Source: Gemmatimonadota bacterium (GTDB taxonomy: Bacteria > Gemmatimonadota > Gemmatimonadetes > Palauibacterales > Palauibacteraceae). From it: a stretch of 64,000 nucleotides of DNA. A model generated the notes under the pieces. That model did not search any database. It saw nothing but the letters and a program-made list of their open reading frames with translations, and had not been told where the DNA came from. Numbering within the stretch: position 1 is the stretch's first letter; each line of letters starts with the position of its first letter. Position numbers and translations under genes: made by a program. The stretch is taken from the NCBI GenBank assembly GCA_039585235.1, contig JBDGWG010000001.1, positions 1,022-65,021 of the forward strand. Direction: 5' to 3'. Of the stretch, positions 1 to 18,521 are shown one piece after another.

Positions 1-622
1 CCGCGTGACAGGTGCCACAGAAGTCGCGCGCGGACGGCTTACCAGGTCGCACCGCTCGCGGCGCTGACTTGTGCTCATCCGGCGCGTCGTGGCACGTGAG
101 GCACGGCAGAGTGGCGTGGTGCGACACCGCCTTCTGGCTTGCGATCTGTCCATGGCACGCCCGGCAGGCACCCGGGATCACGGGAGGCTCAGGCGCATGC
201 GGGTCATGGCACGTCATGCACGGGACGGTCGGGTTGTGGGCCACCGGATCGATCTGCGGAAATCCGGACGGCCGGGAGGCGTCATAGCCGTGGCACAGAG
301 GGCAGAACCCCCTCTCACGGGGAGCAGGCGGTTTCACCGACCCGGGAGCGGCTACGTGGCCGGCCGCCGGCCCGTGACAAACCTCGCACGAAACCCCAGC
401 GTGGTTCGAATCACCTCGTTTCTCGGCGATCGGCCGATGACAAAGAGTACACTCTTCGTGTCCGGCGTACTGGAGTGGGTACGCCGCGATCGTATCGACA
501 GCTGCGGCACGGTAATGGCCCAGTTCGCCGAACGTGTCCGGCACCAGCCTCTGCCGCACCGCCAGGAAGACGACGGCCAGGACGGCGAAGGCGATGCCGA
601 GGCGCGTAACCTGTTGGGGCAT
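1..622 (-). CDS. Multiheme cytochrome c, N-terminal membrane anchor; partial (C-terminus beyond window start)
   Basis: Manual minus-strand translation from ATG at 622: MPQQVTRLGIAFAVLAVVFLAV (TM helix), then seven CXXCH motifs (CTLCH, CEVCH, CPLCH, CMTCH, CRACH, CLTCH, CGTCH) with no stop before position 1. Not in the ORF track because it has no stop in the window. Confidence 0.6.
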   Translation of the reverse strand, partial: MPQQVTRLGIAFAVLAVVFLAVRQRLVPDTFGELGHYRAAAVDTIAAYPLQYAGHEECTLCHRPIAEKRGDSNHAGVSCEVCHGPAAGHVAAPGSVKPPAPRERGFCPLCHGYDASRPSGFPQIDPVAHNPTVPCMTCHDPHAPEPPVIPGACRACHGQIASQKAVSHHATLPCLTCHDAPDEHKSAPRAVRPGKPSARDFCGTCHA

Positions 623-839
623 GGCGCGCTCGTTTGTCTGGAGAGTGCCCCCGCCTCAGGGGCTCAGTTTGTAGCGCGCAACATCGATGCCAGTGTCGGA
701 TTCCCTAACGGATCGCGGCAAATGGCCTTATGCGGGGAAGGTCGGCCACCGCGGCGGTGGGACACATTGAACCGGTAGCTTCCTCGTCGTGGGACAGTCC
801 GTCTCGGCGAAATCGGCCGGTATCCGCCCTACGCACCCC

Positions 840-1937
840 CTACTGGATCGGATTCGCCGTGTATCCCATCACGGTCAGGATGATGATGTAGGCGATCATC
901 GCCAGAGCGATCACGGTCATCAGTCGACTGGCTTCTCCGGGGGCTCTCCTCCTGTCCAGGAAAGGCACGAGCAACAGGAACAGTCCTGCGAGAGCAAAGG
1001 CCATCACGCCCAACATCTCGCCTTCGAGTCCGAGGATGTGCGAAGGAAGCAGCTTGAGCGTGTGGAACATGTACATGAAGTACCACTCGGGCTTGATCCC
1101 GATCGGCGCCGGCGCGAAGGGGTCGGCCTTCTCCCCCAGGTGCGCGGGGAAGAACGCCGCGAGCGCGCCGAGGACCGCCAGGGCGACCAGCCAACCGACG
1201 GCGTCCCGCATGAGGAAACTGGGGACGAACTTCATGGCGCCGCGTTTCGATCCATCCCTCTCGACGTCCGGCGGCACGCTCATGCCGTGTCGTTGGACCA
1301 GGAAGAGGTGCAGCCCGACGAACAGAATGATAACGGCCGGGAGGAGTGCCACGTGGATAGCGTAGAATCGGGTCAGGGTCGCGCCGGTGACGTCCGTGCC
1401 TCCACGTGCCAGGTCCCGCACGAAGCTACCGATCAACGGGACCACTCCCACGATCTCCGTACCCACCTTGGTCGCGAAGTATGCGAGTTCGTTCCACGGA
1501 AGGAGGTAACCCGTGAATCCGAAGGCGAGAGTGAGCACGAACAGGATCACCCCGGTGATCCACGTCAGGTCTCTGGGAGCCCGGTACGCTTTCAGAAGAA
1601 ACACGCTGAACATGTGGATGAGCACGGTGAACACCATCAGGTTCGCCGCCCACGCGTGAATCGACCGGATCAGCCACCCGAACTGTACTTCGGCCATGAG
1701 GAACTGAACGGACTCGTAGGCCTCCTCGGCACTGGGTCTGTAGTAGAAGAGAAGAAGGACGCCCGTGCTCAACTGGATCAGGAAGAGGAAGAGGGTCATG
1801 CCTCCCAGGTAGTACCAGATCGTGTGCCGGTGCAGCGGCACATCCTTCTTTCGGGCCATTTCCGACAGGGGCGCGAGCCCGATACGATCGTCGAGCCAGT
1901 TTCCGAGCTTCTCGTACCAGCGGCTCTTCCCGGTCAT
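840..1937 (-). CDS. petB: Cytochrome b (bc1/b6f-type, full-length ~8 TM)
   Basis: 365 aa with multiple TM helices, conserved His pairs ([19 protein letters not shown]; [16 protein letters not shown]) and the PEWY motif (KPEWYF) typical of cytochrome b. Its start overlaps the stop of the upstream Rieske gene at 1937. Confidence 0.9.
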
Positions 1938-2389
1938 CAGGTCCTCTTGCTCACGACGATCTCGTCACCCCGGACATTGACGTCGAATGCGTCGAGCGGC
2001 CGCGGAGGAGGACCCTGAATGTTGCGTCCCGTCAGATCGAAATGGCCGTTGTGGCACGCGCACCAGATGTGCGAGATGTCGTCACGGAACTGCACGGTGC
2101 AGTCCAGGTGGGTGCACACGGCGGAGAACGCGCGCAACTCACCGGACTCGGTGCGCACCAGGATGCCGGGCTTGTTGCCGAAGCGGAACGCCTTCGCCGA
2201 GTTGAGACCGATCTCGTCCGGGCCGAACGGGAGAGCGACGCTCGAGGCGGACGACTCTCCCGCCTCGGGCGGGATGAGGTAGCGCGTCACGGGATACAGC
2301 ATGGCCACCGCGAAACTCCCGGCGCTGGTTCCCAGCAGCCAGTTCACGAAGGCCCGGCGCGACGACTTTGGCGAATCCGTCCCGGCCAT
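1937..2389 (-). CDS. petA: Rieske [2Fe-2S] iron-sulfur protein with Tat signal
   Basis: Canonical box I CTHLDC and box II CACHNGH. N-terminus [20 protein letters not shown] is a twin-arginine signal/TM anchor. The upstream 144 aa of the listed ORF is R/G-rich low complexity, so the start is taken at the internal ATG, giving about 150 aa. Confidence 0.85.
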
Positions 2390-2421
2390 GCGATTTCTCC
2401 CGTCTGACTCAGGCTCGCGGC

Positions 2422-3675
2422 TCACGTCGGTCGCTCGATTTCCCGGATCTTGAGCACCAGGCCTACGATCAGTGCTCCGATTATGATCACCGACACCGCG
2501 AGGCCCATACGGCGAATCTGAAGATCCCGGAGAGCCTCGTGCCCGCTGGCCAGGGCCTCCCCCGATATCTCCATTCCCGGCTCCACTGCCTCCCGCACGG
2601 CCTCCACGTCGAAGGCGTGGATCGCCGCCCTCGATTTCACCAGCGCGCTCTGCCCGTCGTTGAGGCTGACCAGTGCCTCGCTCACTTCCATGCCCGAATC
2701 CTCGGCATGGAGCAACACGGCGCGAGCCGTGTCGAGTCCCACCCTCAAGCCATCGATCAGGTTGCGCATCTCGAGTGCCACCGTGCCCCCGGCATCCGCC
2801 TCGCGGTGGCACTTCGAGCACACGGAGGCCTCCCCGACGCCCAGCATCTCGTCTCCCGCCGGCTCCACGTCATGGTTCTGGTGGCAAACGGCGCAGCCGG
2901 GCACCCCCAGCATGGTGAAGGTCTCCGAGTGGTGGCTCTCCTCGAAGTAGTCGGCCATTACGACGTGACACTGCCCGCACACGTTGCCGACCCAGGAAAC
3001 CCCGGGCGGCGCCGCGCCGTGATTCCCGTGGCAGTCGTTGCACGTGGGCGCGGACGTGTCACCCCCCTCACTCATCGTCTCCCAGTGGACGCTGCGTCGG
3101 TATTCCGCGCCCTGGTCCGTCGGGATGCCGTAGGGCTCCATGTGAGCCGGGTCCGAGTGACAGCCCTCGCACGTGTCCGCCACGTTGAGCGGGTGGACCG
3201 CGGAACGGGGGTCCGAGGCCGGACGGATGCCGTGCGCCCCGTGGCAGCTGGCGCACGTGGCGACGGCCGTATCGGCCGCGCCGAGCAGTCGCTGCCCGTG
3301 AACGGATGTGACGTACTCCGCCACCTGGTCGACCCGGAGCGCCGGGTCGTATTGCCGCATGAAACCGGCATTCGAGTGACAGCGGCCGCAAACATCCGGT
3401 ACCTGTTCGGGCGAGGGCCGGCCGATATAGCCCTTCGCCAAGTCCATGGCGGCCGGACCCTGGACGGTGGGGTCACCACCGTGGCAAGCCGCACACCCGA
3501 ATCCCGCCTCCGCGTGCACGTCTTCAGCGAAGGCCGCTGCGGGCTCGCCCAGTCGGCCGGAGAGCATCTCGTGACACGAAATGCAACTGTCCGTTCCCTC
3601 CTGGGCTGCCGAGTGATCCGGCGAGGCCAGAATCGCCACCATCACCAAGGCGATCGCGCCGCTGCGTAGGTTCAT
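2422..3675 (-). CDS. Nonaheme c-type cytochrome with signal peptide and C-terminal TM anchor
   Basis: Nine CXXCH motifs (CISCH, CAACH, CGRCH, CASCH, CEGCH, CNDCH, CGQCH, CAVCH, CSKCH). N-terminal signal AILASPDHSAAQ and C-terminal helix GLAVSVIIIGALIVGLVL. Sits directly upstream of the Rieske/cytochrome b genes, in the position of cytochrome c1. Confidence 0.85.
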   Translation of the reverse strand: MNLRSGAIALVMVAILASPDHSAAQEGTDSCISCHEMLSGRLGEPAAAFAEDVHAEAGFGCAACHGGDPTVQGPAAMDLAKGYIGRPSPEQVPDVCGRCHSNAGFMRQYDPALRVDQVAEYVTSVHGQRLLGAADTAVATCASCHGAHGIRPASDPRSAVHPLNVADTCEGCHSDPAHMEPYGIPTDQGAEYRRSVHWETMSEGGDTSAPTCNDCHGNHGAAPPGVSWVGNVCGQCHVVMADYFEESHHSETFTMLGVPGCAVCHQNHDVEPAGDEMLGVGEASVCSKCHREADAGGTVALEMRNLIDGLRVGLDTARAVLLHAEDSGMEVSEALVSLNDGQSALVKSRAAIHAFDVEAVREAVEPGMEISGEALASGHEALRDLQIRRMGLAVSVIIIGALIVGLVLKIREIERPT

Positions 3676-4889
3676 GGAGCGCTCGCTTGGAAGAAAGCCA
3701 TGAGATCTCCTATCTCACGACCGGTGAACGAAGGCCATTCAGCGCCAGATCTCTCTTCAGCCTCGAACAGGGCGAGGTGGTTCCACAGGGCGGCCGTAAT
3801 GGACGACGGATGATCCAGGCCCGGGATCGACGTCAGTTCGCCCGGGCCGTGGCAGTCCGTGCAACCCTTGCTGTCCATCAGGGTCCGGCCCCTGCTCGCT
3901 CGACCGCCGGCTGAGAAATAGTCCACGGAATACAGATAGGCGACGATGTTGGCGAAGTCCTGCGCCTCCAGGCGGGGGAACTCCAGGTCTCTCGCCCGCA
4001 GGGCCCCCACCATGGCCGGCGCCTTGTTCCACATCAGGGCCACGAATTCGACCAGGCTTGTGCCCCGGCTCAACCCCGCCAGATCGCGCGCGACACGTCC
4101 TCCCGCACCGGGGTCCCCATGGCACTCGGCGCATCTCTTATCCTCGACCACCCGCACCCCCGCGTCGGCATCACCGGGAAGGACGTAGAGGTTCTCGCCC
4201 GGGGTCTCACCGGTCGTGGATCTGAGAAAGGCGATCAGGTCAGTCAGGTCGTGACTGCTCATCACGGGTCGTGAGATGCCTCTGACCTCCGCTGCTTCGA
4301 TCATCGCCGGACCGTGGTTCCACATGGCGGCAGCGATCTCGATCGGCACGCCCCGCGCGCCGACGTGATCCAGAACAGGCCCCACGACTCCACCGACGCC
4401 TCGGACCTGGTGACACAGGATGCAGTTCATCTCGGTGAAGCGACGCTTTCCTCGTTCCGGATCCCCCGGAGTGTCGAAATACCCCAGCGTGTAGAGGTAC
4501 GCGAACAGATCGCCGGCCTCGCGCTCACTCAGGTGGGGTCTCTCGATTCCGAGCTCCGCCATGTGCCGGTTCATGTCCGGCAGGTGGTTCCACAGGGCCG
4601 CGGTGAGTTCCTGGAAGGTCCGGGGGGAGGCGATCGTCCGCAGGTCGGGCCCCAGAGACTGGCCGCTGCCGCTGACCGAGTGGCAGCGGATGCACCCCTT
4701 CTCCCCGAACACTTCGGCACCGGCCACGGCGTTCTGAGTAGGCGCGGGCAGGTCCTGGGCCACCAGAAAGCGCGCGCCCGGCACGGAGCCGGCCGCGAGG
4801 GCCAGAACGACATGCAACAATCGCCATGAGGATCGCGTTGCGCTGTGCACTGTGTCCTGTCTGCGACGATTGTGAGCGTTGCAGGCCAA
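3672..4889 (-). CDS. Four-domain class I cytochrome c (4 x monoheme domains)
   Basis: Four ~95-aa repeats, each with one CXXCH (CIRCH, CILCH, CAECH, CTDCH) followed by a conserved (M/L)WNH/K..P motif, plus an N-terminal signal. Stop/start overlaps the downstream gene by 4 nt. Confidence 0.8.
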   Translation of the reverse strand: MACNAHNRRRQDTVHSATRSSWRLLHVVLALAAGSVPGARFLVAQDLPAPTQNAVAGAEVFGEKGCIRCHSVSGSGQSLGPDLRTIASPRTFQELTAALWNHLPDMNRHMAELGIERPHLSEREAGDLFAYLYTLGYFDTPGDPERGKRRFTEMNCILCHQVRGVGGVVGPVLDHVGARGVPIEIAAAMWNHGPAMIEAAEVRGISRPVMSSHDLTDLIAFLRSTTGETPGENLYVLPGDADAGVRVVEDKRCAECHGDPGAGGRVARDLAGLSRGTSLVEFVALMWNKAPAMVGALRARDLEFPRLEAQDFANIVAYLYSVDYFSAGGRASRGRTLMDSKGCTDCHGPGELTSIPGLDHPSSITAALWNHLALFEAEERSGAEWPSFTGREIGDLMAFFQASAP

Positions 4890-4984
4890 GGGCGACTCTC
4901 AGGCCCGCCCCACGCGCCAACGCGGCGCGGCGGAGCCCCTGCCTATATCAGCGGCCTTCCCCTGCCTCGAAAGGGAGAGCGCGA

Positions 4985-5932
4985 TCAGTATCCGGTGTGG
5001 CAGATAGCGCACGACTGAGTGCTGCGGTCGGCGGCCCGCTCGGGATCGAAGTCCGGTCCGTGCGGATTCACGCGCCAGCCGGCCTTGGCCGAGTGACAGG
5101 CCAGACACTCGGTCTGCTGGTGGCAGGTAGTACAACTCTCCATGCCCTGCCGCGCCGCCACACCGTGCTGTTGAAGCCAGTTCGCTACGCCGTCGTGGTA
5201 CCCCCCGTTCTGGCGCCCGTTCTGCGCGACGCCCTGCGTGGAGTGGCAATCACGGCAGAAGACCTCCCGCGAGTGGCATTCGGCGCACTCCATCGGAGCG
5301 GCCCACGATTCCGCGCTGTGCCGCGTGACGAAGTTCGCCGGATGGTATTGAAAGTCAGAGTTCTTCGGTCCATCGTGACAGTCGACGCAGAACGTCTCCT
5401 TGTGGCATTGCGTGCAATTCGGGAGTCCCGCCGCTGCCGCGGTCGCGTGCTGCGTCTTGAAGTCGGGCGTATGTCCGGGCCCCGGATCGTAGTGACAGGT
5501 CTCGCACGGGTTGATTCCGACCTCGAAGTGGTCGGTCGCGCCGTTACCGTGACAGGCAAGGCATGTGTCACCCGAGGCTGCCTGGACGGCCATATCGCTT
5601 TCCGCCTCAGGGACGCCGTGACAGGTCTGGCACCCGAGCTTGGGGTGCGTGGCATGCTCGAACTTCAGGCCGCTTTCCTGTGGAGTGTATCCCTCCCAGT
5701 CCACCTCGACGACCATCTGACCGTTGTGACAGCCGGCGCACAGCGCCGGGTCCGCCGACACGTTCTGTGCCGCGTCTCCAGAGTAGATGCCCGCGTGGCA
5801 GCTCTCGCACCCGGCAGCTCCAAGCACCGCGTGCTTCTCGTGCGGAAACTCGAACGCTAAATGGGAGGCCGCGAGCAGCGCTCCGGCGCCGACCGTGAGA
5901 ACGAGGGCGCTCAGATAAGCGAGCCGCCTCAT
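4985..5932 (-). CDS. Dodecaheme periplasmic c-type cytochrome (MtrA/OmaB-like heme density)
   Basis: Twelve CXXCH in 315 aa (~26 aa per heme), with a signal peptide (MRRLAYLSALVLTVGAGALLAAS) and no lipobox. Its ATG overlaps the stop of the upstream beta-barrel gene at 5929-5932 (ATGA-type overlap). Confidence 0.85.
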   Translation of the reverse strand: MRRLAYLSALVLTVGAGALLAASHLAFEFPHEKHAVLGAAGCESCHAGIYSGDAAQNVSADPALCAGCHNGQMVVEVDWEGYTPQESGLKFEHATHPKLGCQTCHGVPEAESDMAVQAASGDTCLACHGNGATDHFEVGINPCETCHYDPGPGHTPDFKTQHATAAAAGLPNCTQCHKETFCVDCHDGPKNSDFQYHPANFVTRHSAESWAAPMECAECHSREVFCRDCHSTQGVAQNGRQNGGYHDGVANWLQQHGVAARQGMESCTTCHQQTECLACHSAKAGWRVNPHGPDFDPERAADRSTQSCAICHTGY

Positions 5933-7383
5933 CGGGTACCTCCAGTGTTGAAGCGCCAGCGCAGGCCGACCGTGGCGCGTCCTTCGCTCCAGGTGTCGGC
6001 AAGCGGCCGGTTCTTGTCTTCGATGCGGTAGAAGCCGAGGCTAGCGTCCAGCGTGAGATTCGCCTTGGCGATGTCATAAGCGCCCTCGACCGCGCCGCCC
6101 GTCACATAGCGCTCACCCTCGCGGAACTCGTACAGGGTCTCGGTCGAGGTTCCCCGAAGCGCCACATAGGAGGCGCCGGTCGGTCCGAGATAGCGCCCGA
6201 AGATCAGGTCGCCGCCGTATCGCGAGCCTCCGAATCCTTCTTCGGCCCTGTAGCGCGCGTCCACGTACCACTTGTCCGGGCTCCAGTAGACGCGACCGAA
6301 CCCACGCCAGCCGTCCTTCTTGACGGTCGTGTTGGCTGGACCCGCATTCGTGTCCTCGTACTCGCGGTACGCTCCGCCCGCTTCCACGAGGAGGGGCAGG
6401 TTTCTCGAAGTCCATGTCCCTGAAAGGCGCGCCTCGTTGAACCCGATGGGTGAGAATGCGCTCCAGATGGTCCAGTAATCGAAGAACGGAGTGTAATGAC
6501 GGCCCTGGGCGGCGAACCGGATTCCGAGGACCTGAGGAGTCGTGATTCGAAGCCGCGCGTCATTGATGTTGTCGAACGCGAAGTCGTAGCTCGCGGCGCC
6601 GTCGAACGCCCAGCCACCGACGAGCGCCCGCAGATCGACTGCGGCTCTCTCCGTATACAGGGCCAGGCGGTCCGTGCGAAGTTCCCTCTGGTAGGTCGCT
6701 GATCCCGAAAACACTTTTCCGCCGCGGAAGCCGAGCTCTCCTCCGAACAGCAGGCCGCGCCGGTCGGTGGCCAGGAGGTCCGACTCCGTGTACAGGCTGC
6801 CGTTGCGGGGAGCGTTAACGCCGCGGGCCAGGCTCCAACCGCCATATGCGTCAACCCACAACCAGCCGAGCCCGCGCCAGATGATCGACGCGCCGTCGAA
6901 GTTGTAGTAGCCGAGGCCTGAGGCCCGGTACATCCGTCCGGCTTTCACCTGGTAGGCTGCCCGATTGAAGCTCAGGTAGCCGGTCAGCAGGTCGAATTCC
7001 TGGTCCGTGCGTGGCCACAGCTCGTCGCTCCCGAAGCGCGTGCGCATCTGTCCGTGGAATGACAGGCCCTGCACCCCTGTCCAGCCGGCGAATCGCAGGT
7101 CCTGCGTGAACGGCATGATGTCCTGGCGCTGGCCTTTGTTCTCGTACCAGCGGCAGAAGTCGCCTTCGACGCACGATACTACCGTCCCGTCCGCGAGCTG
7201 GCGCTGGAGACCCGATCCAGAGACGTCTCCCTCGGGAACCGAATCCTGCTCGAACGGCTGGAGCTGCATCCAGCCCCAGTTGAGTCTGACGTCGCCGCGC
7301 ACGCCCTGGGCCTGGGCCTCTGACGGCAGCCACACCACGGCGCACGCGACTAACAAGAAGAACGGCCGGCGATGGACAGTCAT
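5929..7383 (-). CDS. Outer-membrane beta-barrel protein (putative porin partner of multiheme cytochrome)
   Basis: 484 aa with a signal peptide (FFLLVACAVVWLPSEAQAQG). Composition is Gly/Tyr/Trp/Arg-rich with alternating amphipathic strand patterns (YRASGLGYYNFDGASIIWRGLGWLWVDAYGGW) and no hydrophobic helices. Translationally coupled to the dodecaheme cytochrome. Confidence 0.6.
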   Translation of the reverse strand: MTVHRRPFFLLVACAVVWLPSEAQAQGVRGDVRLNWGWMQLQPFEQDSVPEGDVSGSGLQRQLADGTVVSCVEGDFCRWYENKGQRQDIMPFTQDLRFAGWTGVQGLSFHGQMRTRFGSDELWPRTDQEFDLLTGYLSFNRAAYQVKAGRMYRASGLGYYNFDGASIIWRGLGWLWVDAYGGWSLARGVNAPRNGSLYTESDLLATDRRGLLFGGELGFRGGKVFSGSATYQRELRTDRLALYTERAAVDLRALVGGWAFDGAASYDFAFDNINDARLRITTPQVLGIRFAAQGRHYTPFFDYWTIWSAFSPIGFNEARLSGTWTSRNLPLLVEAGGAYREYEDTNAGPANTTVKKDGWRGFGRVYWSPDKWYVDARYRAEEGFGGSRYGGDLIFGRYLGPTGASYVALRGTSTETLYEFREGERYVTGGAVEGAYDIAKANLTLDASLGFYRIEDKNRPLADTWSEGRATVGLRWRFNTGGTR

Positions 7384-7530
7384 GGTCCTGCTCCGACGCG
7401 CTTGAGGTTACCTGTCACGGAGCTTCCTGGACGGCACGATAAACATGGGTGGCCGGGCGAGTCGGATCAAGCCCGCCCCGAGGGTTCCCCGCAGACAGGC
7501 CCGGCCCTTTCGGCCGAGCCTGCCCGGTTC

Positions 7531-10425: not shown

Positions 10426-10462
10426 GTGCGTCCGCCTCCTTCACTGCAAGAAGCGGACACAA

Positions 10463-10502
10463 GTGTATCTTTCTATAAAATGTTGGTATGATAGCAAGTT
10501 AC
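10463..10502 (-). promoter_or_regulatory. AT-rich island in the 115-bp gap upstream of the 964-aa cytochrome gene; candidate promoter
   Basis: gtgtatctttctataaaatgttggtatgatagcaagttac is ~75% AT in an otherwise ~70% GC context. Contains TATGAT/TATAAA-like hexamers and lies in the only sizeable intergenic gap (10426-10540) inside the cytochrome array. Confidence 0.35.
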
Positions 10503-10540
10503 GACGGAGGACCCGGAGTCGAGTCCTCCGCCACGATGGG

Positions 10541-12520
10541 TCAAGATGTCACATGTTCGGTGGGTGCGTCCGCTTCCCCGGACTCGGTCGCCACTTTGTC
10601 TTCGTGCCCTGAAAGGCCGTTCTGCGCGTCATCACCGCCCGCGAGCTCCTCGTCATACCAGCGGCCGTGCACCGCCCTGGCCTCATGCTCGGGCATCTTC
10701 CCCGTCAGCCAGATCCAGCTCATCGGATAGACCTCGGGGTGGAACAGCACGAAGAAGAAGTGCCACACCACGATGGCCAGCGTGGCCAGCCAAGCCTCAT
10801 AGAAGTGGATGGTTTCAGAAATGGACACGATCCACGTGGGGAACAGCCCGGTGGCCCAGGAGGGGAACCACAGGACCACACCGGTGAGCGCCATGAGAAC
10901 CGTACCCCACACCAGCGCCCAGTACTCCGCCTTCTGGGTGTAATCGTACCGTCCGAATCGAGCCCGATGCGGGGAGCGCCACGTGTAGAAGCGCATGTTG
11001 TCGACGAATTCCTTCGCGTCCCTGACGTTAGGCGTCATCGCCTGGAACTCTTCCCTGCCGCGTTTCATGAACATGATGTACAGAACGTGGACGATCCCGA
11101 ATAAGATCAACCCGACGCCCAGCACGCGGTGCAGGGTCGATCGCACGGGTTCCGCCAGATAGGCGAGGCCCGTCACTCGCGCCCAGCCAGCTTCCGGGTA
11201 CCGGAGGGCGAATCCTGTGACGACCAGCAGGATGAAGGATGTGGCCAGCATGGCGTGCTGCGCGATCTGGATCCGGTCGAAGCGCAGGAAGCCTCGCTCG
11301 GCTCCATCCCGCCGCCGCTTCTCGACCATGTAGTAATTGAAAATGATCGCGTTGTGGATCGCCATTCCTCCGATGACGACCGCAATCAACGCGATATAGA
11401 TCGCGCGCACGATCCGCCGGCCCTTGTTCGTCGCGATCGAGGCTGCCCGATGGTCCCCTTCGTGACATTGCCGGCACGTGGCCACCACGTTGCCTTCCGC
11501 GACCGACGACTCCGGGTCGTCTGCCGGGAGCACGAAGTGGGTCGTGTGGCAGCTCACGCACGTGGCCGAGGTCTGACTGGCCCGCCGAGTCGCCCACCCG
11601 TGGTAGCTGTCGCTGTAGGAGAGGACAACCTCCTCCTGCAGACTGTACTTGGTGATGATCACGGGGTCGTTATGGCAATCGCCGCACAGCTGGGCAGCAA
11701 GATGCCCGGAGTGCGTACCGGCGTCGGGGTTGGCCGGATGCAGAATGAGGTGCTCGCCGTGACAGTCCGTGCACGTGGGGCTGTCGCTCACGCCCGCCGC
11801 CACCGCCCTGCCGTGGATCGAGCGGTCGTAGATCTCCGTGATGTTCCCGTGACACGCCCCGCACGTCGCCGACACGTTCCGCCGGTTGATCCTGGACTCG
11901 GGGTCTGAGTGACCCCTGAGATCGTGGACGCCATGACAGTCCGTGCAAGTGGCGGCCTCCGAGGGGCCGTTTCCATTCGCGGTCCCGTGCACGGAGCGGG
12001 CGTACTGCAGAGCCGGCGCCGGCAACTTCAGGTACTGATCGGTCAGCAGGCCACCCGTGCTGTGACACTCCGTGCACGTCTCGGCCACCCGCGCGTGGTA
12101 CGTGTGCGACTCCGGGTCGGTGCTCCGACGAATGTCGTGCGCCCCGTGGCAACCGGCACACGTCGGAGCCCGCGGGTTGCCGCGCTCCAGTGCGTACCCG
12201 TGCACGCTACCGGAATACTCTCGGCCTTCCCCGCCGTGGCACCCGCCGCAGCGAACCGGGGTGTACTCCTCGGGGTGGGGGTAGTTGAAGGCCTGGTGAC
12301 AGGTGATACAGGACATTCCGAAGCCGCCGTGCACCGAGCCGGCGAACTCTTCCTGCGTGACGACGAGGCGGGCGGAGTCTGCCCGTCCGGCGAAGTTGGC
12401 GGTATCTCCGTGGCAGGCGAGACAGAAACGGTTCTCCTGCGCGGAGAGACTGGTGGCGAATATGGCAACGCCAAGACCGGCCACCAGAATACGGGCTGGA
12501 TGGGGCCAATGGCTCAACAT
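10541..12520 (-). CDS. Fusion protein: 11-heme c-type cytochrome domain + C-terminal dihaem cytochrome b membrane domain (CbcL-like architecture)
   Basis: Signal peptide, eleven CXXCH in the N-terminal ~350 aa, then a ~300-aa polytopic domain with conserved His in TM helices (IAQHAMLATSFILLVVTGFAL; LHRVLGVGLILFGIVHVLYIMF; ETIHFYEAWLATLAIVVWHFFF). A paralogous architecture to 7531-10425. Confidence 0.85.
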   Translation of the reverse strand: MLSHWPHPARILVAGLGVAIFATSLSAQENRFCLACHGDTANFAGRADSARLVVTQEEFAGSVHGGFGMSCITCHQAFNYPHPEEYTPVRCGGCHGGEGREYSGSVHGYALERGNPRAPTCAGCHGAHDIRRSTDPESHTYHARVAETCTECHSTGGLLTDQYLKLPAPALQYARSVHGTANGNGPSEAATCTDCHGVHDLRGHSDPESRINRRNVSATCGACHGNITEIYDRSIHGRAVAAGVSDSPTCTDCHGEHLILHPANPDAGTHSGHLAAQLCGDCHNDPVIITKYSLQEEVVLSYSDSYHGWATRRASQTSATCVSCHTTHFVLPADDPESSVAEGNVVATCRQCHEGDHRAASIATNKGRRIVRAIYIALIAVVIGGMAIHNAIIFNYYMVEKRRRDGAERGFLRFDRIQIAQHAMLATSFILLVVTGFALRYPEAGWARVTGLAYLAEPVRSTLHRVLGVGLILFGIVHVLYIMFMKRGREEFQAMTPNVRDAKEFVDNMRFYTWRSPHRARFGRYDYTQKAEYWALVWGTVLMALTGVVLWFPSWATGLFPTWIVSISETIHFYEAWLATLAIVVWHFFFVLFHPEVYPMSWIWLTGKMPEHEARAVHGRWYDEELAGGDDAQNGLSGHEDKVATESGEADAPTEHVTS

Positions 12521-12735
12521 ATGGTGCCGCGTCCCTATTTGTGGTGGAGCGAGGGGGCTCCGGGCGGGAAACGCAGCACCATTCGTGCCGCGACGACGGC
12601 TCGCCGACCCGCTGCCTGGCGCGGAGATGCGAGCGAGGTGAAGTGCCTGCGTCAGAGCAAGTTACGGGAAGGCAGCCCCGAGTTTGGCAGGGCGGTCAGC
12701 GCAGGCCGCTCCGCCGGCTACGCCCAGAGGCCGGC

Positions 12736-14703
12736 CTATTGTCCCAGCGCCGGGACCTCATGGCACATCTCGCACGCTACCGGGGCGTTGTGCTCCACCC
12801 GGTCGGCATGGCACACCGTGCACACGTTGCGCGACCAGGCGGCCACGCCTTCGATTGCCTCACCGTGGCAGACGGCGCATCCCTGGTGAGCCCCGACGGG
12901 ATGGATCTGCAGGACGCCTCCCCGATGGCAGCTCAGGCACGTGGCTTCCGGCTGATGATGAGCGCCGTGACAGTTCTCGCACACATCAGCGCTCGGTGAG
13001 CCCGGGCTGTCGCCGTGGCACGTGGCGCACGCGAATCCGAGGGCCACGTGTGTCGGGTGAGGGAAATCTCCCGTGGCAGTGGTAATCGTGCCAGTCGGAG
13101 CGCGGGCGCCGCCCGCGTGGCACCGTTCGCACCCGATGGCTCCGCTGTGGTGACAGTCGGAGCACGCCGCCCGCGAGCCGAGAGCCATCCCGCCGTGCTC
13201 CTCCAGGCCCGTGTGACAGGCCGAGCACGGGAGGTTCGCCTCCTTCACATGCGGCTGATGCGAGAAGCGCGTACCCTGCCACACGCCTTCCTGGCGATCC
13301 ACGCCCAGGTGGCAGCCCAAACATGCGTTCTCCGCAACCGGTGTGCCGAGGCTCACCGTGGGCGGACGGTAGTCAAGACCGCCGCTTCGGGCGGCCCGAT
13401 CCACGTACTCCACGACCGCGCGCAGAAGCGCATCCGCATACCCTATGTTGTGTGCGCTCTGTCCCACCGAGACGAGTTCGACGTTGTCGGCCGCCAGGGC
13501 CAGCAAGCTGTCGGCCGTGGCGCGCTGCGCGAAAGAGCCGGTCCGGGGTGCCGAGGAGGCCGCTCGCACGATCGACGACACTCGCTTCAGCTTGCCGTCC
13601 ATCTCCGCCTGCCACGACGGCAGGATGTTGGCGTACTTGGTCCCGTGGCACGCCAGACAAGTAGCCTCCCCCGCCGCCTGGACCTGTTCGTGACCGGCGA
13701 TTTCACGTGGGAGGCCGTGGCAGCTCCCGCACGAGACACGGGCCTCGTACATGGCGCTCGGATCGTCCTCGGCGCCATGGCCTCCCGTGCCAGTGTACAG
13801 GTTGCGTTGCGCTGCGTGCGTACCCTGGTGGCAGGCCGTGCAGTCGAGCTCGAACGTGTCGGCGTGTGAGACCACCTCGTGCGCGATCGGCCGGTGACAC
13901 AGCTGACACTCCACGTTGTGCTCCCCGAGGTGCACCTCGTGCACAAGGGTCGCATCCGCGAACAGGGCGACCCTCTCCGGCTCGTTGTGACACCCGAAGC
14001 ACCGATCCTGCTCGGCCGCCCCGTCGCCCGACGTCACGCGGTCGTGACACGAGATGCACGATACCATGTCCCGCACGTACTGCGGATGATCGATCACGCC
14101 CGTCGCAGTGGTGATGAGCGGCGGTTCCACGTGGCAGCCCGTGCACCCGGCGATGGGCTCGCCTTCAGGGCGTCCCCGAAAGTGGCACAGAAAGCAGGTG
14201 CTCTTCGTGACCGCGACGTGATCTCCCTGCACGATCTGCGAGTGGCAGCTCGTGCACCGAAGCTGCTTGCCGCGCCGATGTGCAATCAGGTGATGCCGAT
14301 GGTCGAAGCGGACGCCGAGGAAAGTGAGCTCGCCCTCGATCTTGCGTGTCGAGTGGCACCCCGAACGCAGACACGCCGCATCCTCGATCTCGGCCCATGG
14401 CTTCGTCCCGTAGGTGCCCGTGACGTACTTCACGACCTGGTTGGCCGCCTGCATCTTTCCCATCGCCTCGGCCTTGATCCCGGGGGCGTAATGGCACTTG
14501 ATGCAGGGCACATCCTGGTGAGTGGAGGTCGTCCACGAATCGTAGTAAGGCTGCATGTTGTGGCAGTTCTTACAGAAACTGGGCCGCGCCGCGTACTCGA
14601 TGAACCCTACGGTCCCGAGCCCGGCCAACAGGATGAGGAGAATGATCCCCTGGACGACTACTCGAAGCAATCGCCTCCGCTTCTCGGGGTCGTGGCGGGT
14701 CAT
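12736..14703 (-). CDS. NapC/NirT/NrfH-family membrane quinol dehydrogenase module fused to a ~21-22-heme cytochrome c domain
   Basis: N-terminal TM (LLRVVVQGIILLILLAGLGTVGF) followed by the NrfH/NapC signature PSFCKNCHNMQPYYDSWTTSTHQDVPCIKCHY. The remaining ~580 aa carry ~19 more CXXCH plus one CX4CH (CLRSGCH). The internal ATG at 14703 is chosen as start (MTRHDPEKRRRLL) because it overlaps the TGA of the upstream gene as ATGA; the ORF track extends to 14799. Confidence 0.85.
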   Translation of the reverse strand: MTRHDPEKRRRLLRVVVQGIILLILLAGLGTVGFIEYAARPSFCKNCHNMQPYYDSWTTSTHQDVPCIKCHYAPGIKAEAMGKMQAANQVVKYVTGTYGTKPWAEIEDAACLRSGCHSTRKIEGELTFLGVRFDHRHHLIAHRRGKQLRCTSCHSQIVQGDHVAVTKSTCFLCHFRGRPEGEPIAGCTGCHVEPPLITTATGVIDHPQYVRDMVSCISCHDRVTSGDGAAEQDRCFGCHNEPERVALFADATLVHEVHLGEHNVECQLCHRPIAHEVVSHADTFELDCTACHQGTHAAQRNLYTGTGGHGAEDDPSAMYEARVSCGSCHGLPREIAGHEQVQAAGEATCLACHGTKYANILPSWQAEMDGKLKRVSSIVRAASSAPRTGSFAQRATADSLLALAADNVELVSVGQSAHNIGYADALLRAVVEYVDRAARSGGLDYRPPTVSLGTPVAENACLGCHLGVDRQEGVWQGTRFSHQPHVKEANLPCSACHTGLEEHGGMALGSRAACSDCHHSGAIGCERCHAGGARAPTGTITTATGDFPHPTHVALGFACATCHGDSPGSPSADVCENCHGAHHQPEATCLSCHRGGVLQIHPVGAHQGCAVCHGEAIEGVAAWSRNVCTVCHADRVEHNAPVACEMCHEVPALGQ

Positions 14704-16016
14704 CCTGCCACCCGGCTCGGATCCGAGCCCGGTTCGGTGCCCCGGAGACGCCACAGCCGGGAGCCGGCCAATACGATCGTGGCGAGCGCCAGGAACCACA
14801 CGGGGATGAGGAAGAGCTTGTGCTCCCAGCGCTCCTCGGCACTCACCTCGGCCTCCGCGACGATGTCACGCGAGATGGAGCCGACGACTCGCTCGAGGTC
14901 CTCGAGCCGCTCCAGATCCAGCGCGTGCTGCGCCGACGCCAGCTGCCGGTATTGAGTGAGGGCCGTGCGATAACGGAACCGCGTATCGCTGACCTCGTGC
15001 CCGGCCCGCACCAGCTCGTGGATCGCCTCCGCGGCCGCATCCATCTCCCGCTCGGCGCGCACGAGGATCTTCTCGATTTCCTCGCCCAGCACGGCGGGCG
15101 CGCTCGCCGGGGCGTGGCAGCCGGTGCACGTCGTGGCCACCAGATCCGGTGGGATTCGCTCCGTAAGGTGACTGCTGTGGCACGCCGTGCAGCCGAGAAG
15201 GACCCCCTCGGCCGTGGCCCTTCCGTGTGGCCCTTCATCGAGGGCCTTTCTCGTTCCGACGTGACACCGGCCGCACACGTTCGAGATCTCGCTCACATTC
15301 GGGGGCAGGGCCGCGTGAGACCCGTGGCACCCGATGCAGCTCGGCGCCGCGAAATTCAGATCCTCGAACAGGGCTGCGCCGTGCGCGCTCCGTCGGTGGC
15401 TGCGGACCTGATCCGTGGGGATGCCGTACGGTTCCATCAAGGCGTCGTCCTCGTGGCATACGGCGCACAAGGTCGGGATATTCAGAGGGTACGCACTGCT
15501 GCGAGCGTCGTCCGCTCGAAGCGTGGTGTGCGGATCGTGGCAGTCAGAGCACGTGGGGGCGTCCTCACTGCCTCGTTCCAGGAGGAGCATGCCATGTCGG
15601 CTGGTGCGCAGCTCGGCGATCTGGTCTGCGGGAAGACCGTACTGACGCATCGCGTCGGGATCAGCGTGACAGCTGGAGCACACCTCGACCGTAGCCAGCT
15701 TGCCCAGAGACCCGCGGAAGTCACCGCCGTGCGCCCCGGGAATCTCGAACGAGTCCGGGTCTCCTCCGTGACAGTCGTGGCACCGGACGTTTCTGTCGGA
15801 GTGCACTCCGAGCAGATACGCCCTCCTCTTGTCCGCGTGACAGATGAGGCAGCCGTACTGCGGGTCGATCCCGCCGGCTTCCTGCGGGACGGCCTCGCCA
15901 GAAACGACGTGCGCGCTGACGGACGCCTCTACCATGGGTGCGCGATCGAAGCCGGTAGCCGAAAAGATGCCTGCCATGACGAGGACAAAGCCGGCCTTCT
16001 TGAGCGTCGCGCTCAT
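14700..16016 (-). CDS. Nonaheme c-type cytochrome with C-terminal TM anchor (paralog of 2422-3675)
   Basis: Nine CXXCH (CLICH, CHDCH, CSSCH, CSDCH, CAVCH, CIGCH, CGRCH, CTACH, CTGCH). C-terminal helix LFLIPVWFLALATIVLAG. Blocks are collinear with the 417-aa nonaheme protein (e.g. EPYGIPTDQ conserved in both). Start overlaps the stop of the cytochrome b gene (16013-16016). Confidence 0.85.
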   Translation of the reverse strand: MSATLKKAGFVLVMAGIFSATGFDRAPMVEASVSAHVVSGEAVPQEAGGIDPQYGCLICHADKRRAYLLGVHSDRNVRCHDCHGGDPDSFEIPGAHGGDFRGSLGKLATVEVCSSCHADPDAMRQYGLPADQIAELRTSRHGMLLLERGSEDAPTCSDCHDPHTTLRADDARSSAYPLNIPTLCAVCHEDDALMEPYGIPTDQVRSHRRSAHGAALFEDLNFAAPSCIGCHGSHAALPPNVSEISNVCGRCHVGTRKALDEGPHGRATAEGVLLGCTACHSSHLTERIPPDLVATTCTGCHAPASAPAVLGEEIEKILVRAEREMDAAAEAIHELVRAGHEVSDTRFRYRTALTQYRQLASAQHALDLERLEDLERVVGSISRDIVAEAEVSAEERWEHKLFLIPVWFLALATIVLAGSRLWRLRGTEPGSDPSRVAG

Positions 16017-17278
16017 TCTCCGGGACCCTCCTCCCCCGCCTCGGCTTCCGCCGCTTCACCCTCAGCCTCATCGACCGGTTCTGACGAGGGCGGCGCAGGG
16101 ATGGCCCTTTCCTCCAGGATGCGGGACTCGACCCCGGCGCTCGGTGTGACCGAATCGACGCGGCTGCCGAGCGCCCAGAACACGAGAAAACCGAGGAAGA
16201 AAGCCAGACCGATCGCCGCCGCCACAGGACGCTTGCGCAAGGCAGCCGCACTGCCCCGGTCGACGAGCGGGAGAAGCACGAGCATCATGCCGAGCGCCGA
16301 GAAGCCAACGAAGCCCCACACCCCCAGGTAACGGATCAACCCGAGCGACACGTCGACCACGATCCACGTCGACACCAGCTCTCCCGGGAGCTCGAACGGA
16401 GTTGCTGGGTCTCCGACGGGCCGTGGGAACAGCGCGGCGAGCGAGATCGCAATGGCCAGTACGAGGGCGCTCACGATCACGATGCGCAGAAGATGGTTGG
16501 GGAAGAACGGCACGCCCCCTCCATCCCGTTCGGCGAAGCCCGGTGGTGGGGCGACCCCGTGCTTGCGGACCACCACGAAGTGCAGCACCAGGAGTCCGAA
16601 TACGAACCAGGGCAGCACGATTACGTGCAGCGCGAAGAAGCGGCTCAGCGTTGCGCCGGACACGAACACGTCACCCGTCAGGAAGCTGGCTGCTGCTCCC
16701 CCGATCAGTGGTGCGGAGCGCGCGACATCCATCACCTCGGTAGTCGTCCAGTAGGCCCACTGGTCCCAAGGGAGGAGGTAACCCGTCGCCCCAAAGGCCA
16801 GCACGCCGAACAGGAGCAGGACGCCCACCAGCCAGCTCGTCTCCCTCGGCGGCTTGTAGGCGCCGGCGAAGAAGACGCGGGCCATGTGCGCCATGAGCGC
16901 CACGACGATCAGGTTGGCCGACCACACGTGCAGGTCGCGCAACAGCCACCCGAAGGGGACCTCCGTCGCGATGTACTGTATGCTATGGTAGGCCTCGTCG
17001 ACGGACGGACGGTAGTAGAAGGAGAGCAGAACCCCCGAAGCGACGAGGACCATGAACAGAAGATACGCGACTCCACCGAACGCGTGTTTCCAACTCACAT
17101 ATGAGGGCAGACGTCGGCTCCAGGCCTCACGCAACGCTTCGTCGATGGGAAGGCTTCGGTCGATCCGTCCGTACAGGAGGCCGACCAGCCGGAGGCCGGC
17201 GAGCAGGCTTGCGTCCGTGCTCTCCTTGATGTCGGCTCCGATCTGTCTGAGCCAGGTGCGCCCCCGTTTCTCTGCCAT
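16013..17278 (-). CDS. petB: Cytochrome b (second bc-type complex)
   Basis: 421 aa, polytopic, with the conserved His quartet (LHVWSANLIVVALMAHMARVFF; FALHVIVLPWFVFGLLVLHFVVV) and a Glu/Ala-rich acidic C-terminal tail. Confidence 0.9.
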   Translation of the reverse strand: MAEKRGRTWLRQIGADIKESTDASLLAGLRLVGLLYGRIDRSLPIDEALREAWSRRLPSYVSWKHAFGGVAYLLFMVLVASGVLLSFYYRPSVDEAYHSIQYIATEVPFGWLLRDLHVWSANLIVVALMAHMARVFFAGAYKPPRETSWLVGVLLLFGVLAFGATGYLLPWDQWAYWTTTEVMDVARSAPLIGGAAASFLTGDVFVSGATLSRFFALHVIVLPWFVFGLLVLHFVVVRKHGVAPPPGFAERDGGGVPFFPNHLLRIVIVSALVLAIAISLAALFPRPVGDPATPFELPGELVSTWIVVDVSLGLIRYLGVWGFVGFSALGMMLVLLPLVDRGSAAALRKRPVAAAIGLAFFLGFLVFWALGSRVDSVTPSAGVESRILEERAIPAPPSSEPVDEAEGEAAEAEAGEEGPGE

Positions 17279-17287
17279 GTCCTTACC

Positions 17288-17740
17288 TCAGTCCCGCGTC
17301 ACGTATACGGCGCCGTCCCTCACGAAGACGTCGTAGCGCTGAAGCGGCTCGGTCGTAAGGCCCTCGACCGCCTGGCCGCGAAGGTTGTACAACATGTGCC
17401 CGCAAGGTGAGGTCACGCGCATGGCCGCGGCGTCCCACTCGAGTAGGCACCCGTCCACTGGAGATGCCCCCTGGAGCGCCGCAAAATTGCTCTCACCGCT
17501 CCGCACCACGAGGATGGCCTGCTCCCCCCAGCTTGCCATGCGGCTGCTGCCTACGGTGAAGTCCTCGGCGCGCGCCACCCGGACTGCTACCTCGCGCTGT
17601 GCTATGATCAAGTGCTCCGGGGGGACGGTGTAGATCGCCGCGATCGCCGCCGCGATCAGGAACACGACGCCGAGTACGGCATTCAACAAGAACGTGCCGA
17701 AGTCGCGCTTGCGACCCGGTTCCGAGTGCTCTGGAGACAT
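17288..17740 (-). CDS. Rieske-fold protein with degenerate [2Fe-2S] ligand boxes, TM-anchored
   Basis: 151 aa from the internal ATG at 17740 (MSPEHSEPGRKRDFGTFLLNAVLGVVFLIAAAIAAIY...). The C-terminal half aligns with the canonical Rieske at 1937-2389, but box I reads SPVDGC (canonical CTHLDC) and box II reads SPCGHM (canonical CACHNGH), so two or three of the four cluster ligands are missing. Sits immediately upstream of the cytochrome b gene, as petA does. Confidence 0.55.
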   Translation of the reverse strand: MSPEHSEPGRKRDFGTFLLNAVLGVVFLIAAAIAAIYTVPPEHLIIAQREVAVRVARAEDFTVGSSRMASWGEQAILVVRSGESNFAALQGASPVDGCLLEWDAAAMRVTSPCGHMLYNLRGQAVEGLTTEPLQRYDVFVRDGAVYVTRD

Positions 17741-17997
17741 TGGGCTCGCAGCCTCGATAGTTGATCGCCCCGGTCGGGAAGAATCAGCAGCTCCCCCGGG
17801 CGGCTCGTGCGGGCGCTGAAAAGCTACGGCCGGTGGGGACACGATGCCAGAACGTCGGTTGGCCTGTGGAACGCGTCCAAACTCGCGTGGGGGGACGCGG
17901 TGTCCTAATTTCAAAACCACTTCGGTCGAGCGCCGGGAGAGGCTTTGTGCGTTTTCGTGCGCGCCTGGCGTGATACCAATCGCAAGGAGAGCGTAGG

Positions 17998-18384
17998 ATG
18001 ATTCGAAATGTCGTGATCACCGCCGCCGCGCTGCTGTTCGTCGCGGCCGGCTCGGCCTTCGCACAGGACGCGAAGCCGCCGGTCATGTCGCATGACCTAG
18101 AGGGCAAAGACAACTGCGTCATGTGTCACTCGGGGGCGATGGAGGGCATTCCGGCGCAGCCGGCGGACCATGAAGGTCGTGCGGTCGAGACGTGCGTCCA
18201 GTGCCATGCAGCCGACGCCGAGATGCAAACGTCTACCGCGAATGCAATTCCTCATGACCTGGAAGGCAAGGACAACTGCTCCATGTGCCATTCCGGGGCA
18301 ATGGAAGGCATGCCAGCGGCTCCGGCGAGCCACGAGGGCCGGGGAGCTGACACCTGTGAGATGTGCCACAAGCCGGCCGGCTGA
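17998..18384 (+). CDS. Small periplasmic tetraheme cytochrome c built from a tandem duplication
   Basis: 128 aa with a signal peptide (AALLFVAAGSAFAQD) and four CXXCH. Two ~45-aa repeats are nearly identical (HDLEGKDNCVMCHSGAMEGIPAQPADHEGRAVETCVQCH / HDLEGKDNCSMCHSGAMEGMPAAPASHEGRGADTCEMCH). Good SD AAGGAG 8 nt upstream of the ATG. Confidence 0.85.
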   Translation: MIRNVVITAAALLFVAAGSAFAQDAKPPVMSHDLEGKDNCVMCHSGAMEGIPAQPADHEGRAVETCVQCHAADAEMQTSTANAIPHDLEGKDNCSMCHSGAMEGMPAAPASHEGRGADTCEMCHKPAG

Positions 18385-18433
18385 CAACGGCAGGCAGGCT
18401 GTCGAAGAAGGCAAAGAAGCCCTTTCCTGAACG

Positions 18434-18472: not shown

Positions 18473-18521
18473 GTCTTCCTCGATCTGACGACCCGTGCTG
18501 CCGGGCCGCCTGCCTGTGAGC

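Follow-up and report, generated by a model that had tools for sequence, protein, structure and literature searches.

A cluster of genes coding for multihaem c-type cytochromes, an outer-membrane barrel and Rieske/cytochrome b proteins was analysed in a 64,000-nucleotide stretch of DNA (hereafter the window) from a Gemmatimonadota bacterium (assembly GCA_039585235.1, contig JBDGWG010000001.1, positions 1,022 to 65,021 of the forward strand). It is a real, conserved and previously undescribed cluster of the porin-cytochrome type. Its function is deduced from sequence: the locus is probably a modular extracellular electron-transfer (EET) system, the direction of which is not fixed by the sequence. 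The core would be a three-part porin-cytochrome unit composed of barrel I, the multihaem cytochrome J housed in I and the lipoprotein cytochrome A facing outward. Up to six modules linked to the quinone pool (K-L-M-N, G, H, C-D-E-F and O-P-Q) would be stacked around it. This function is proposed because I and J are invariably paired, minimal loci consist of A, I and J, quinone-linked modules recur around the pair, and the sole relative of A among solved structures is OcwA. It is further based on a complete ccm operon in the window and on the barrel gene of some lineages, which starts 8-40 nt after a CbcL-like gene.

Thirteen open reading frames on the minus strand had been described in a first, sequence-only reading of positions 1-17740, and all of them were retrieved in place. 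Genes are labelled here from A (the lipoprotein) and B (a small tetrahaem cytochrome) through C to N, the first twelve of these thirteen genes in transcription order, to O, P and Q.

Barrel I and the multihaem cytochrome J

Barrel I (5929-7383, minus strand) has a signal peptide, lacks hydrophobic helices and was modelled as an all-beta closed barrel. According to this model it is an outer-membrane barrel of about 22-24 strands, and it represents a new family without Pfam or NCBIfam model. Comparison with the Pfam family MtrB_PioB gave no match, and no sequence homology to MtrB was detected. None of the NCBIfam models matched either, so that I is not a detectable ExtI homologue, with the reservation that the presence of an ExtI model in NCBIfam was not checked. 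An exhaustive profile search returned 450 matches among 1.84 billion representatives, the best 150 of which were all close members of the family. With so few matches, the family is small and restricted to a lineage. In the GTDB species set, 445 stretches encoded a relative of the barrel; the best 80 came nearly all from Gemmatimonadota, with two from Eisenbacteria.

J (4985-5932, minus strand) is a dodecahaem cytochrome of 315 residues, thus carrying one haem per 26 residues, and its start overlaps the stop of I by 4 nt. A multihaem reading frame directly follows the barrel gene in 78 of the 78 loci with at least 1 kb of sequence downstream of the barrel, and it has 12 or 16 CXXCH motifs where it is complete. 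This arrangement of a barrel gene adjoining a multihaem gene, kept across genomes, is the architecture of porin-cytochrome systems. Sixteen motifs were counted in 55 of the 78 loci, whereas 17 loci of the Benthicola-like lineage, to which the window belongs, have 12. The J of the window is thus a shortened wire in comparison with the 16-haem version of most lineages. As a haem wire, J would sit inside barrel I. J is not a member of the MtrA/DmsE/MtoA family (TIGR03508, ten haems), as it reached 21.5 bits for a cut-off of 192.2 and has 12 haems; the cytochromes E, L and A scored 48.9, 38.8 and 36.0 bits, respectively.

The top-ranked structural neighbours of barrel I were substrate-specific Occ porins, a result that speaks for another explanation. 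According to it, no wire crosses the outer membrane and ordinary respiratory modules are juxtaposed, namely a complex III variant, quinol dehydrogenases of the NrfH/NapC, CbcL and NrfCD types, and periplasmic multihaem stores or reductases. The barrel would then be a channel for substrates or products, as proposed for Geobacter ExtI in selenite and tellurite uptake, or a factor for the assembly or anchoring of J. ExtI of the analogous Geobacter cluster was interpreted as an oxyanion porin (PMC5877670), K is weakly similar to ExtS, both cytochromes b are similar to ExtP, and soluble nitrogen and sulfur oxyanions are also reduced by OcwA-family and NrfA-like multihaem proteins (PMC6703420). The explanation is nevertheless considered unlikely. 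The 22-24 strands exceed those of the Occ type (18) and of general porins (16), and kinship to ExtI was not detectable in NCBIfam, subject to the reservation made above. Moreover, the coupling by a 4-nt overlap to a cytochrome with one haem per 26 residues (78/78) and the recurrent lipoprotein cytochrome are hallmarks of porin-cytochrome systems.

The lipoprotein cytochrome A and the tetrahaem cytochrome B

A (18522-20006, minus strand) is a nonahaem lipoprotein cytochrome of 494 residues with eight CXXCH motifs, one CX4CH motif and the lipobox LAGGC, and it was assigned to Cytochrome_C554/C7 by Pfam. The lipobox cysteine and all nine haem sites were invariant in 46 homologues. When A was searched against the sequences of the PDB, the sole match was OcwA of Thermincola potens (6I5B, E 7e-11), in short patches around the haem motifs. 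OcwA has been characterised as a terminal reductase of the cell surface (PMC6703420). It is a nonahaem protein like A, but it comes from a Gram-positive host and is not a barrel-associated lipoprotein. In order to test for an OcwA-like fold, an AlphaFold2 model of A was made; with a pLDDT of 57 it was too poor for a fold search and was not used. A is a candidate cell-surface terminal cytochrome, predicted to face outward, and it adjoins the barrel-J pair in minimal loci. The conduit had been called complete within 1-17740; this was overstated, as A, the sole candidate for the cell surface, is a separate unit outside these coordinates.

B (17998-18384, plus strand) was identified by six-frame translation and by its haem positions as a small periplasmic tetrahaem cytochrome of 128 residues with a signal peptide. 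Its internal duplication consists of two repeats of the type HDLEGKDNCxMCHSGAMEG. Being on the opposite strand, B interrupts the supposed single-strand run and parts A from the thirteen-gene block. A and B are convergent, with an 18-bp hairpin between them (18434-18472). Homologues of B were found beside the barrel-J pair in 16 related loci. The locus is consequently not confined to 1-17740: it includes B and A upstream, and NrfC-like and NrfD-like genes past the left edge of the window.

Modular conservation across related loci

All 17 proteins were compared by tblastn with 82 non-redundant related loci. CbcL-like, NapC-like and Rieske/cytochrome b modules recurred beside the barrel-J pair in most of them, in varied combinations. 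The movable blocks were C-D-E-F (at times inverted as a unit), G/H, (K)-L-M-N and O-P-Q, and many combinations of these were encountered. The full order of the window was found in close relatives and also in four loci (L007, L042, L050 and L054) with a barrel that is just 45-49% identical. Six minimal loci (L061, L063, L069, L073, L083 and L086) are made of A, I and J, and a circular metagenome-assembled genome (MAG) of 4.58 Mb has a compact set of five genes: a c/b fusion, a multihaem cytochrome, the barrel, a multihaem cytochrome and an A-like gene.

The minimal loci resemble the three-component architecture of MtrCAB of Shewanella (PDB 6R2Q) and of OmaB-OmbB-OmcB of Geobacter. In comparison with MtrCAB, the barrel has about 22-24 strands instead of the 26 of MtrB, its partner has 12 or 16 haems instead of the ten of MtrA, and there is no sequence homology.

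Among the loci, L019 belongs to Candidatus Benthicola marisminoris and L040, with an A-F-G-H-I-J-B version, to Candidatus Carthagonibacter metallireducens. The metal respiration to which the latter epithet refers was derived by the describing authors from a hydrogenase alone, and haem proteins and the cluster are nowhere mentioned in that description of the Palauibacterales (PMC10469786). A literature search for prior descriptions of this Gemmatimonadota cluster gave passing mentions of multihaem or Cyc2-like genes only.

Haem content and quinone-linked modules

The high multihaem content reported for 1-17740 was confirmed, the figure of about 100 c-type haems being roughly 8% too high: 92 CXXCH motifs and one CX4CH motif were counted. 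The CXXCH motifs are distributed over O (7, partial gene), L (9), K (4), J (12), H (19), G (11), F (21) and E (9). From A to Q, the entire cluster with its flanks contains 106-107 c-haem sites, along with four dihaem b domains. Pfam supported the domain labels of the sequence-only reading, namely two Cytochrome_B proteins, a Rieske protein with PetC anchor, Ni_hydr_CYTB in both c/b fusions, a NapC/NirT N-terminus in F, four class-I cytochrome c units in K and a weak Rieske_2 match in C.

G (10541-12520, minus strand) and H (7531-10353, minus strand) are CbcL-like proteins, in which periplasmic domains of 11 and 19 haems, respectively, are fused to a HydC/FdnI-type dihaem cytochrome b. Both show the architecture of the CbcL/MtrH/MtoC family, with scores of 71.6 (G) and 41.3 bits (H) for Ni_hydr_CYTB (PF01292, cut-off 30.1), 11 and 19 CXXCH motifs, transmembrane segments and histidines. 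Matches of G in NCBIfam were formate-dehydrogenase gamma-like and below cut-off. Judged from sequence and haem spacing, H is a paralogue of G with an internal expansion of the haem domain. The same fusion of a multihaem domain with a HydC/FdnI-type dihaem cytochrome b is known from Geobacter GSU0274, to which G and H are likened by architecture. Published CbcL/MtrH/MtoC homologues have 3-23 haems and often adjoin mtrAB/mtoAB or other cytochrome genes (PMC6295460). The window differs in having two tandem paralogues, each with its own spacer of 187-215 bp upstream.

K, L, M and N form a Rieske/cytochrome b module. K (3672-4889, minus strand; likely start at 4820; 382 residues in the JGI gene call) consists of four tandem class-I monohaem cytochrome c domains (Pfam Cytochrom_C, E 4e-30). 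These are of high-potential type, resembling c550, c551, CcoP and SoxX in NCBIfam, and the gene is placed between J and the Rieske/cytochrome b complex. L (2422-3675, minus strand) is a nonahaem cytochrome with a C-terminal transmembrane anchor and a paralogue of E, as seen from translation and haem map. M (1937-2389, minus strand) is a canonical PetC-type Rieske [2Fe-2S] subunit (Pfam Rieske and TM_PetC), the ligand motifs of which (CTHLDC and CACH) were invariant in 22 homologues. N (840-1937, minus strand) is a cytochrome b of fused cytochrome b6/subunit IV type, with both N- and C-domains in Pfam and four histidines arranged as HX13H and HX14H; its NCBIfam matches, cytochrome b6 and ExtP-like, were below cut-off. 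M and N have all the defining features of bc1/b6f complexes, i.e. Rieske ligands, four histidines and PEWY. L has the topology of cytochrome c1 (signal peptide and C-terminal anchor) and would be its equivalent in the M-N complex, which differs from bc1/b6f complexes in that its c subunit is a nonahaem protein.

At the left edge, the 5' part of O (1-622, minus strand) codes for a membrane-anchored cytochrome, which is octahaem and 242 residues long in its complete form. Longer public contigs with the same sequence continue past the edge with the remainder of O, a NrfC-like 4Fe-4S protein (P), a NrfD-like membrane protein (Q) and a convergent peptidase gene. In NCBIfam, P (267 residues) is similar to the FeS proteins NrfC, TtrB and DsrO, and Q to DsrP and NrfD. 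Alternative complex III is composed of the pentahaem ActA, ActB (a molybdopterin-like part and FeS), two NrfD-like subunits (ActC and ActF) and ActE. O-P-Q was rejected as such a complex, as it has no ActB-type large subunit and just one NrfD-like gene.

A Rieske/cytochrome b block without cluster ligands and PEWY

C (17288-17740, minus strand) is a membrane-anchored subunit of Rieske fold without [2Fe-2S] ligands (Pfam Rieske_2, E 2e-4, sub-threshold). The four ligands are replaced (cysteine by serine, histidine by variable residues, cysteine by serine and histidine by variable residues), and both disulfide cysteines are invariant. HHalign aligned the C family end-to-end, including the anchor, with the true Rieske family represented by M (probability 98.5%, E 3e-15). 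The C family has about 300 members, of which the named ones are all from Gemmatimonadota. Since the substitutions and both disulfide cysteines are conserved over these members, a pseudogene was ruled out. In public annotations the family appears as 'Rieske (2Fe-2S) protein' or 'nitrite reductase/ring-hydroxylating ferredoxin subunit' despite the loss of the four ligands.

D (16013-17278, minus strand) is a cytochrome b with a b6-like N-domain (cytochrome b6 in the PDB, E 5e-54) and a subunit-IV-like C-domain, of which Pfam matched the N-domain alone. It retains the four haem-b histidines and the b6-like fold. The Qo motif PEWY was present in none of 20 aligned D homologues; 18 of them share xS(T/S)W(V/I) in its place, and the two most divergent ones (L079 and L088) have unrelated sequence at this site. 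By comparison, KPEWYF was invariant in 43 aligned homologues of N type. Module C-D, in which fold, anchor and haem-b histidines are kept, has thus lost both the Rieske ligands and PEWY of bc1/b6f complexes.

E (14700-16016, minus strand) is a nonahaem cytochrome that begins with a signal peptide and ends in a transmembrane anchor. Its haem spacing parallels that of L, and it may act as the c1-equivalent of the C-D module. F (12736-14703, minus strand) is a membrane-anchored cytochrome of NapC/NirT/NrfH type (Pfam Cytochrom_NNT) with 21 CXXCH motifs and one CX4CH motif. The score of 35.6 bits for PF03264 (cut-off 24.1), a single transmembrane helix at residues 12-30 and the motif CKNCHNM of haem 1 at residue 44 agree with this assignment. 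F is not an NrfH equivalog (TIGR03153, 48 bits for a cut-off of 134). ImcH has three N-terminal transmembrane helices, an atypical CX3CH motif and 5-9 CXXCH motifs (PMC6295460); F was ruled out as ImcH by its one helix, the absence of CX3CH and its 21 CXXCH motifs.

The genes C, D, E and F co-occurred in fixed order, in either orientation, wherever a contig covered the block, and the D/E and E/F overlaps of the window are 4 nt each. From the co-occurrence, the fixed order, these overlaps and the loss of ligands and motif, C-D-E-F would be one complex incapable of Rieske-dependent bifurcation. No equivalent of the C-D block, i.e. without ligands and PEWY and tied to a 21-haem NapC-type cytochrome, was found in the published literature.

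Spacers, hairpins and transcription

Overlaps of 1-4 nt reported at 1937, 3672-3675, 5929-5932, 14700-14703 and 16013-16016 were all correct. Gaps over 100 bp had been listed at 10426-10540 and 12521-12735 only, a list that missed 623-839 (217 bp) and 7384-7530 (147 bp). With likelier start codons, two more spacers exceed 100 bp, at 4821-4984 (164 bp) and 10354-10540 (187 bp). Genes of the same block overlap or are 9-32 bp apart.

A stem-loop 3' of G (10503-10532, minus strand) starts 9 nt past the stop codon and has a 13-bp stem (z -4.06). Seven loci have kept it, and compensatory changes affect 5 of 12 pairs; it is a candidate for an intra-cluster attenuator or mRNA-stability element. A GC-rich stem-loop 3' of H (7492-7526, minus strand; 15-bp stem, z -2.74) starts 5 nt past the stop codon. 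Comparable GC-rich hairpins follow H in about 17 other loci; lineages that lack them have the barrel start codon within some 8-40 nt of the end of H. A scan of positions 1-21000 against Rfam gave no match. An identical 11-mer, CGTAACTTGCT, was found at 10493-10503 and 12656-12666 (minus strand), about 140 nt upstream of both c/b genes and nowhere else in the window; it was rejected as a shared conserved operator, being absent from all related loci.

Taken literally, the sequence-only reading implies a single obligatory thirteen-gene operon for one fixed supercomplex. The genes are indeed on one strand with five junctions of 1-4 nt overlap, and the full order is kept in the four distant loci named above. 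In addition, a consensus scan for promoters and terminators (400-20350) gave sites at or below chance, with no sigma-70-like promoter or T-tract terminator above chance on the coding strand in the spacers, a result that is uninformative for this phylum. Against this, CDEF, GH, KLMN and OPQ can each be present, missing or inverted on their own in other genomes, the spacers of 147-217 bp fall exactly on the block borders, and there is a covarying hairpin behind G, with further hairpins behind H. Such an operon was judged very unlikely. The claim of one probable transcription unit went too far for translationally coupled blocks that are separated by spacers and hairpins and move independently between genomes. 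With hairpins between the blocks, a single obligatory operon is unproven, and the genes may be transcribed either as a polycistron in which internal hairpins attenuate or stabilise the message, or as several separate units.

Relation to the ext cluster and to other porin-cytochrome clusters

It had been stated that no locus with this combination was described. This was too strong, since the extHIJKLMNOPQS cluster of Geobacter sulfurreducens (GSU2940-2930), the cytochrome bc-like part of which is also called Cbc6, is the closest described locus. It encodes a porin-like outer-membrane protein and cytochromes with 5, 12 and 10 haems, in addition to a small lipoprotein cytochrome, a Rieske Fe-S protein and a cytochrome b of b6 type accompanied by a subunit-IV-like protein (PMC5877670). 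Scores with the Ext models of NCBIfam were 226 and 216 bits for ExtP (both cytochromes b of the window; cut-off 290), 25 for ExtQ (cut-off 150) and 45 for ExtS (cut-off 100), and no protein of the window attained a curated equivalog cut-off. By sequence, the proteins of the window are homologous to Ext proteins at superfamily level only. The host phylum differs, and the rhodanese and selenoprotein ExtKL are absent from the window. Beyond ext, the window has modules of CbcL-like, NapC-like and NrfCD type, as well as a further Rieske/cytochrome b block that is degenerate.

In PCC3 and PCC4 of Fe(II) oxidisers, a porin gene stands beside multihaem cytochromes and a conserved inner-membrane redox protein (PMC5566968), and PCC clusters with petB/petC were published from karst MAGs (PMC13264449). 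These clusters are genome-predicted, as is the present one. They differ in porin and cytochrome families and in phyla (mainly Proteobacteria, Acidobacteriota and Planctomycetota), and none was reported with six quinone modules or a cluster-less Rieske block.

Proposed mechanism and direction of electron flow

Entry modules interacting with quinol occur here together with periplasmic haem wires and an outer-membrane barrel, as the sequence-only reading had it, and they are linked by comparative genomics. What the analysis showed is which domains the proteins contain, a barrel fold for I, the constant pairing of I with J, the modular gene order across genomes and the disappearance of ligands and motif from C-D. 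Localisations, physical contacts between the parts, direction of flow and substrates are inferred, as follows. One of the membrane modules would oxidise quinol and pass the electrons to periplasmic haems (E, F, L, K and B), from where they would go to J in the barrel and on to A. A would then deliver them to an insoluble or extracellular acceptor, e.g. Fe(III)/Mn(IV) oxides or humics. The presence of several entry modules would allow energy conservation to be matched to the potential of the acceptor, as is the case with ImcH, CbcL and CbcBA in Geobacter. For the clustering of CbcL/MtoC and NapC-type quinol oxidases with porin-cytochrome genes there is precedent (PMC6295460, PMC5566968, PMC13264449, PMC5877670).

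Flow from the inner membrane to the surface had been assumed at first, although direction is not readable from sequence. Flow in the opposite sense would make barrel, J and A the acceptor of electrons that are supplied outside the cell by Fe(II), Mn(II), reduced minerals, a cathodic surface or partner cells. K would carry electrons downhill to terminal oxidases or N-oxide reductases, and the Rieske/cytochrome b and CbcL-like modules would run in reverse and reduce quinone for NAD(P)H, as in Cyc2/rus/petI of Acidithiobacillus and in MtoAB-MtoC/CymA. The high-potential-type class-I domains of K and their position between J and the Rieske/cytochrome b complex point in this direction, and K together with the Rieske complex fits an inward, Fe(II)-oxidising system equally well. 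CbcL/MtoC homologues occur in Fe(II) oxidisers and Fe(III) reducers alike and have no distinguishing feature (PMC6295460), and PCC3 and PCC4 are known from Fe(II) oxidisers (PMC5566968). Palauibacterales were predicted to be facultative aerobes and denitrifiers, and also organoheterotrophs (PMC10469786); the first two properties suit inward flow and the last does not. No marker of carbon fixation or Fe(II) oxidation was found within the window, and the multiple alternative modules of quinol-oxidase type resemble the potential-tiered reductive system of Geobacter. Inward flow is given a minor though real chance, and the two directions are not mutually exclusive.

Several observations weigh against an EET system as such. 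The similarity of barrel I is merely that of a generic barrel, no sequence kinship to MtrB/PioB or ExtI being detected, and J and A remained below every curated cut-off of MtrA/DmsE/OmcB type. In one locus (L091, an 8.1-Mb contig from a large unrelated genome), a homologue of A stands alone with no barrel nearby, which indicates that A-type cytochromes can function without the barrel context. A limited literature search found no report of EET in cultured Gemmatimonadota. Finally, the usual place of Rieske/cytochrome b complexes and class-I cytochromes c is in high-potential soluble chains, so that K-L-M-N could simply be the complex III of the cell.

EET, in either direction, nevertheless remains the favoured function. 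A wider proposal, which is put forward tentatively, is that Gemmatimonadota may carry a phylum-wide, lineage-specific EET machine built on a barrel unrelated in sequence to MtrB or ExtI. It would include a repurposed C-D pair without Fe-S cluster and PEWY glutamate, acting with its nonahaem and 21-haem NapC-type subunits as a non-bifurcating quinol:multihaem oxidoreductase with 30 c-type and 2 b-type haems.

Genomic neighbourhood and host

A complete System I ccmABCEFGH operon (45841-51726, minus strand) is located in the window about 30 kb from the cluster, and is compatible with a heavy load of cytochrome c. Its neighbours are a gene of the sigma-70 family (44855-45739) and a DsbA-like/VKOR pair (43614-44767). 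Beyond A follow a divergent CDF cation-efflux gene (20240-21292, plus strand) and leuS, and the same CDF-leuS neighbourhood flanks a reduced cluster in another locus (L009). With a heavy-metal P-type ATPase (54654-56990, minus strand), the CDF gene adds metal-handling genes to the surroundings of the cytochrome locus.

Proteins of the window share 90% clusters with Candidatus Benthicola marisminoris, and their other homologues are almost all from Gemmatimonadota MAGs of the order Palauibacterales (PAUC43f, 'marine benthic group'). The host is a marine-sediment Gemmatimonadota bacterium of Palauibacterales type.

Significance

Gemmatimonadota rank among the most abundant bacterial phyla of soils and are frequent in marine sediments, yet little is known of their respiratory ecology. 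To our knowledge, they have no recognised electroactivity. What makes the locus notable is the new barrel family, the distribution throughout the phylum, the exceptional degree to which entry modules are stacked and the conserved cluster-less Rieske/cytochrome b block. Its core of barrel and cytochrome is present in about 445 genomes at species level. Up to six stacked quinone-linked modules would make it a natural experiment on how energy conservation is matched to the potential of the acceptor. The cluster-less Rieske protein and the PEWY-less cytochrome b would show what the Q-cycle architecture can become after the loss of bifurcation, and C-D-E-F, if the interpretation given here is true, would define a cytochrome b complex of a new class. 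If the locus is an EET conduit, it would provide a genetic basis for the epithet 'metallireducens', and Gemmatimonadota would be a major unrecognised player in the cycling of iron, manganese and humics, in metal-contaminated sediments and possibly in interspecies electron transfer.

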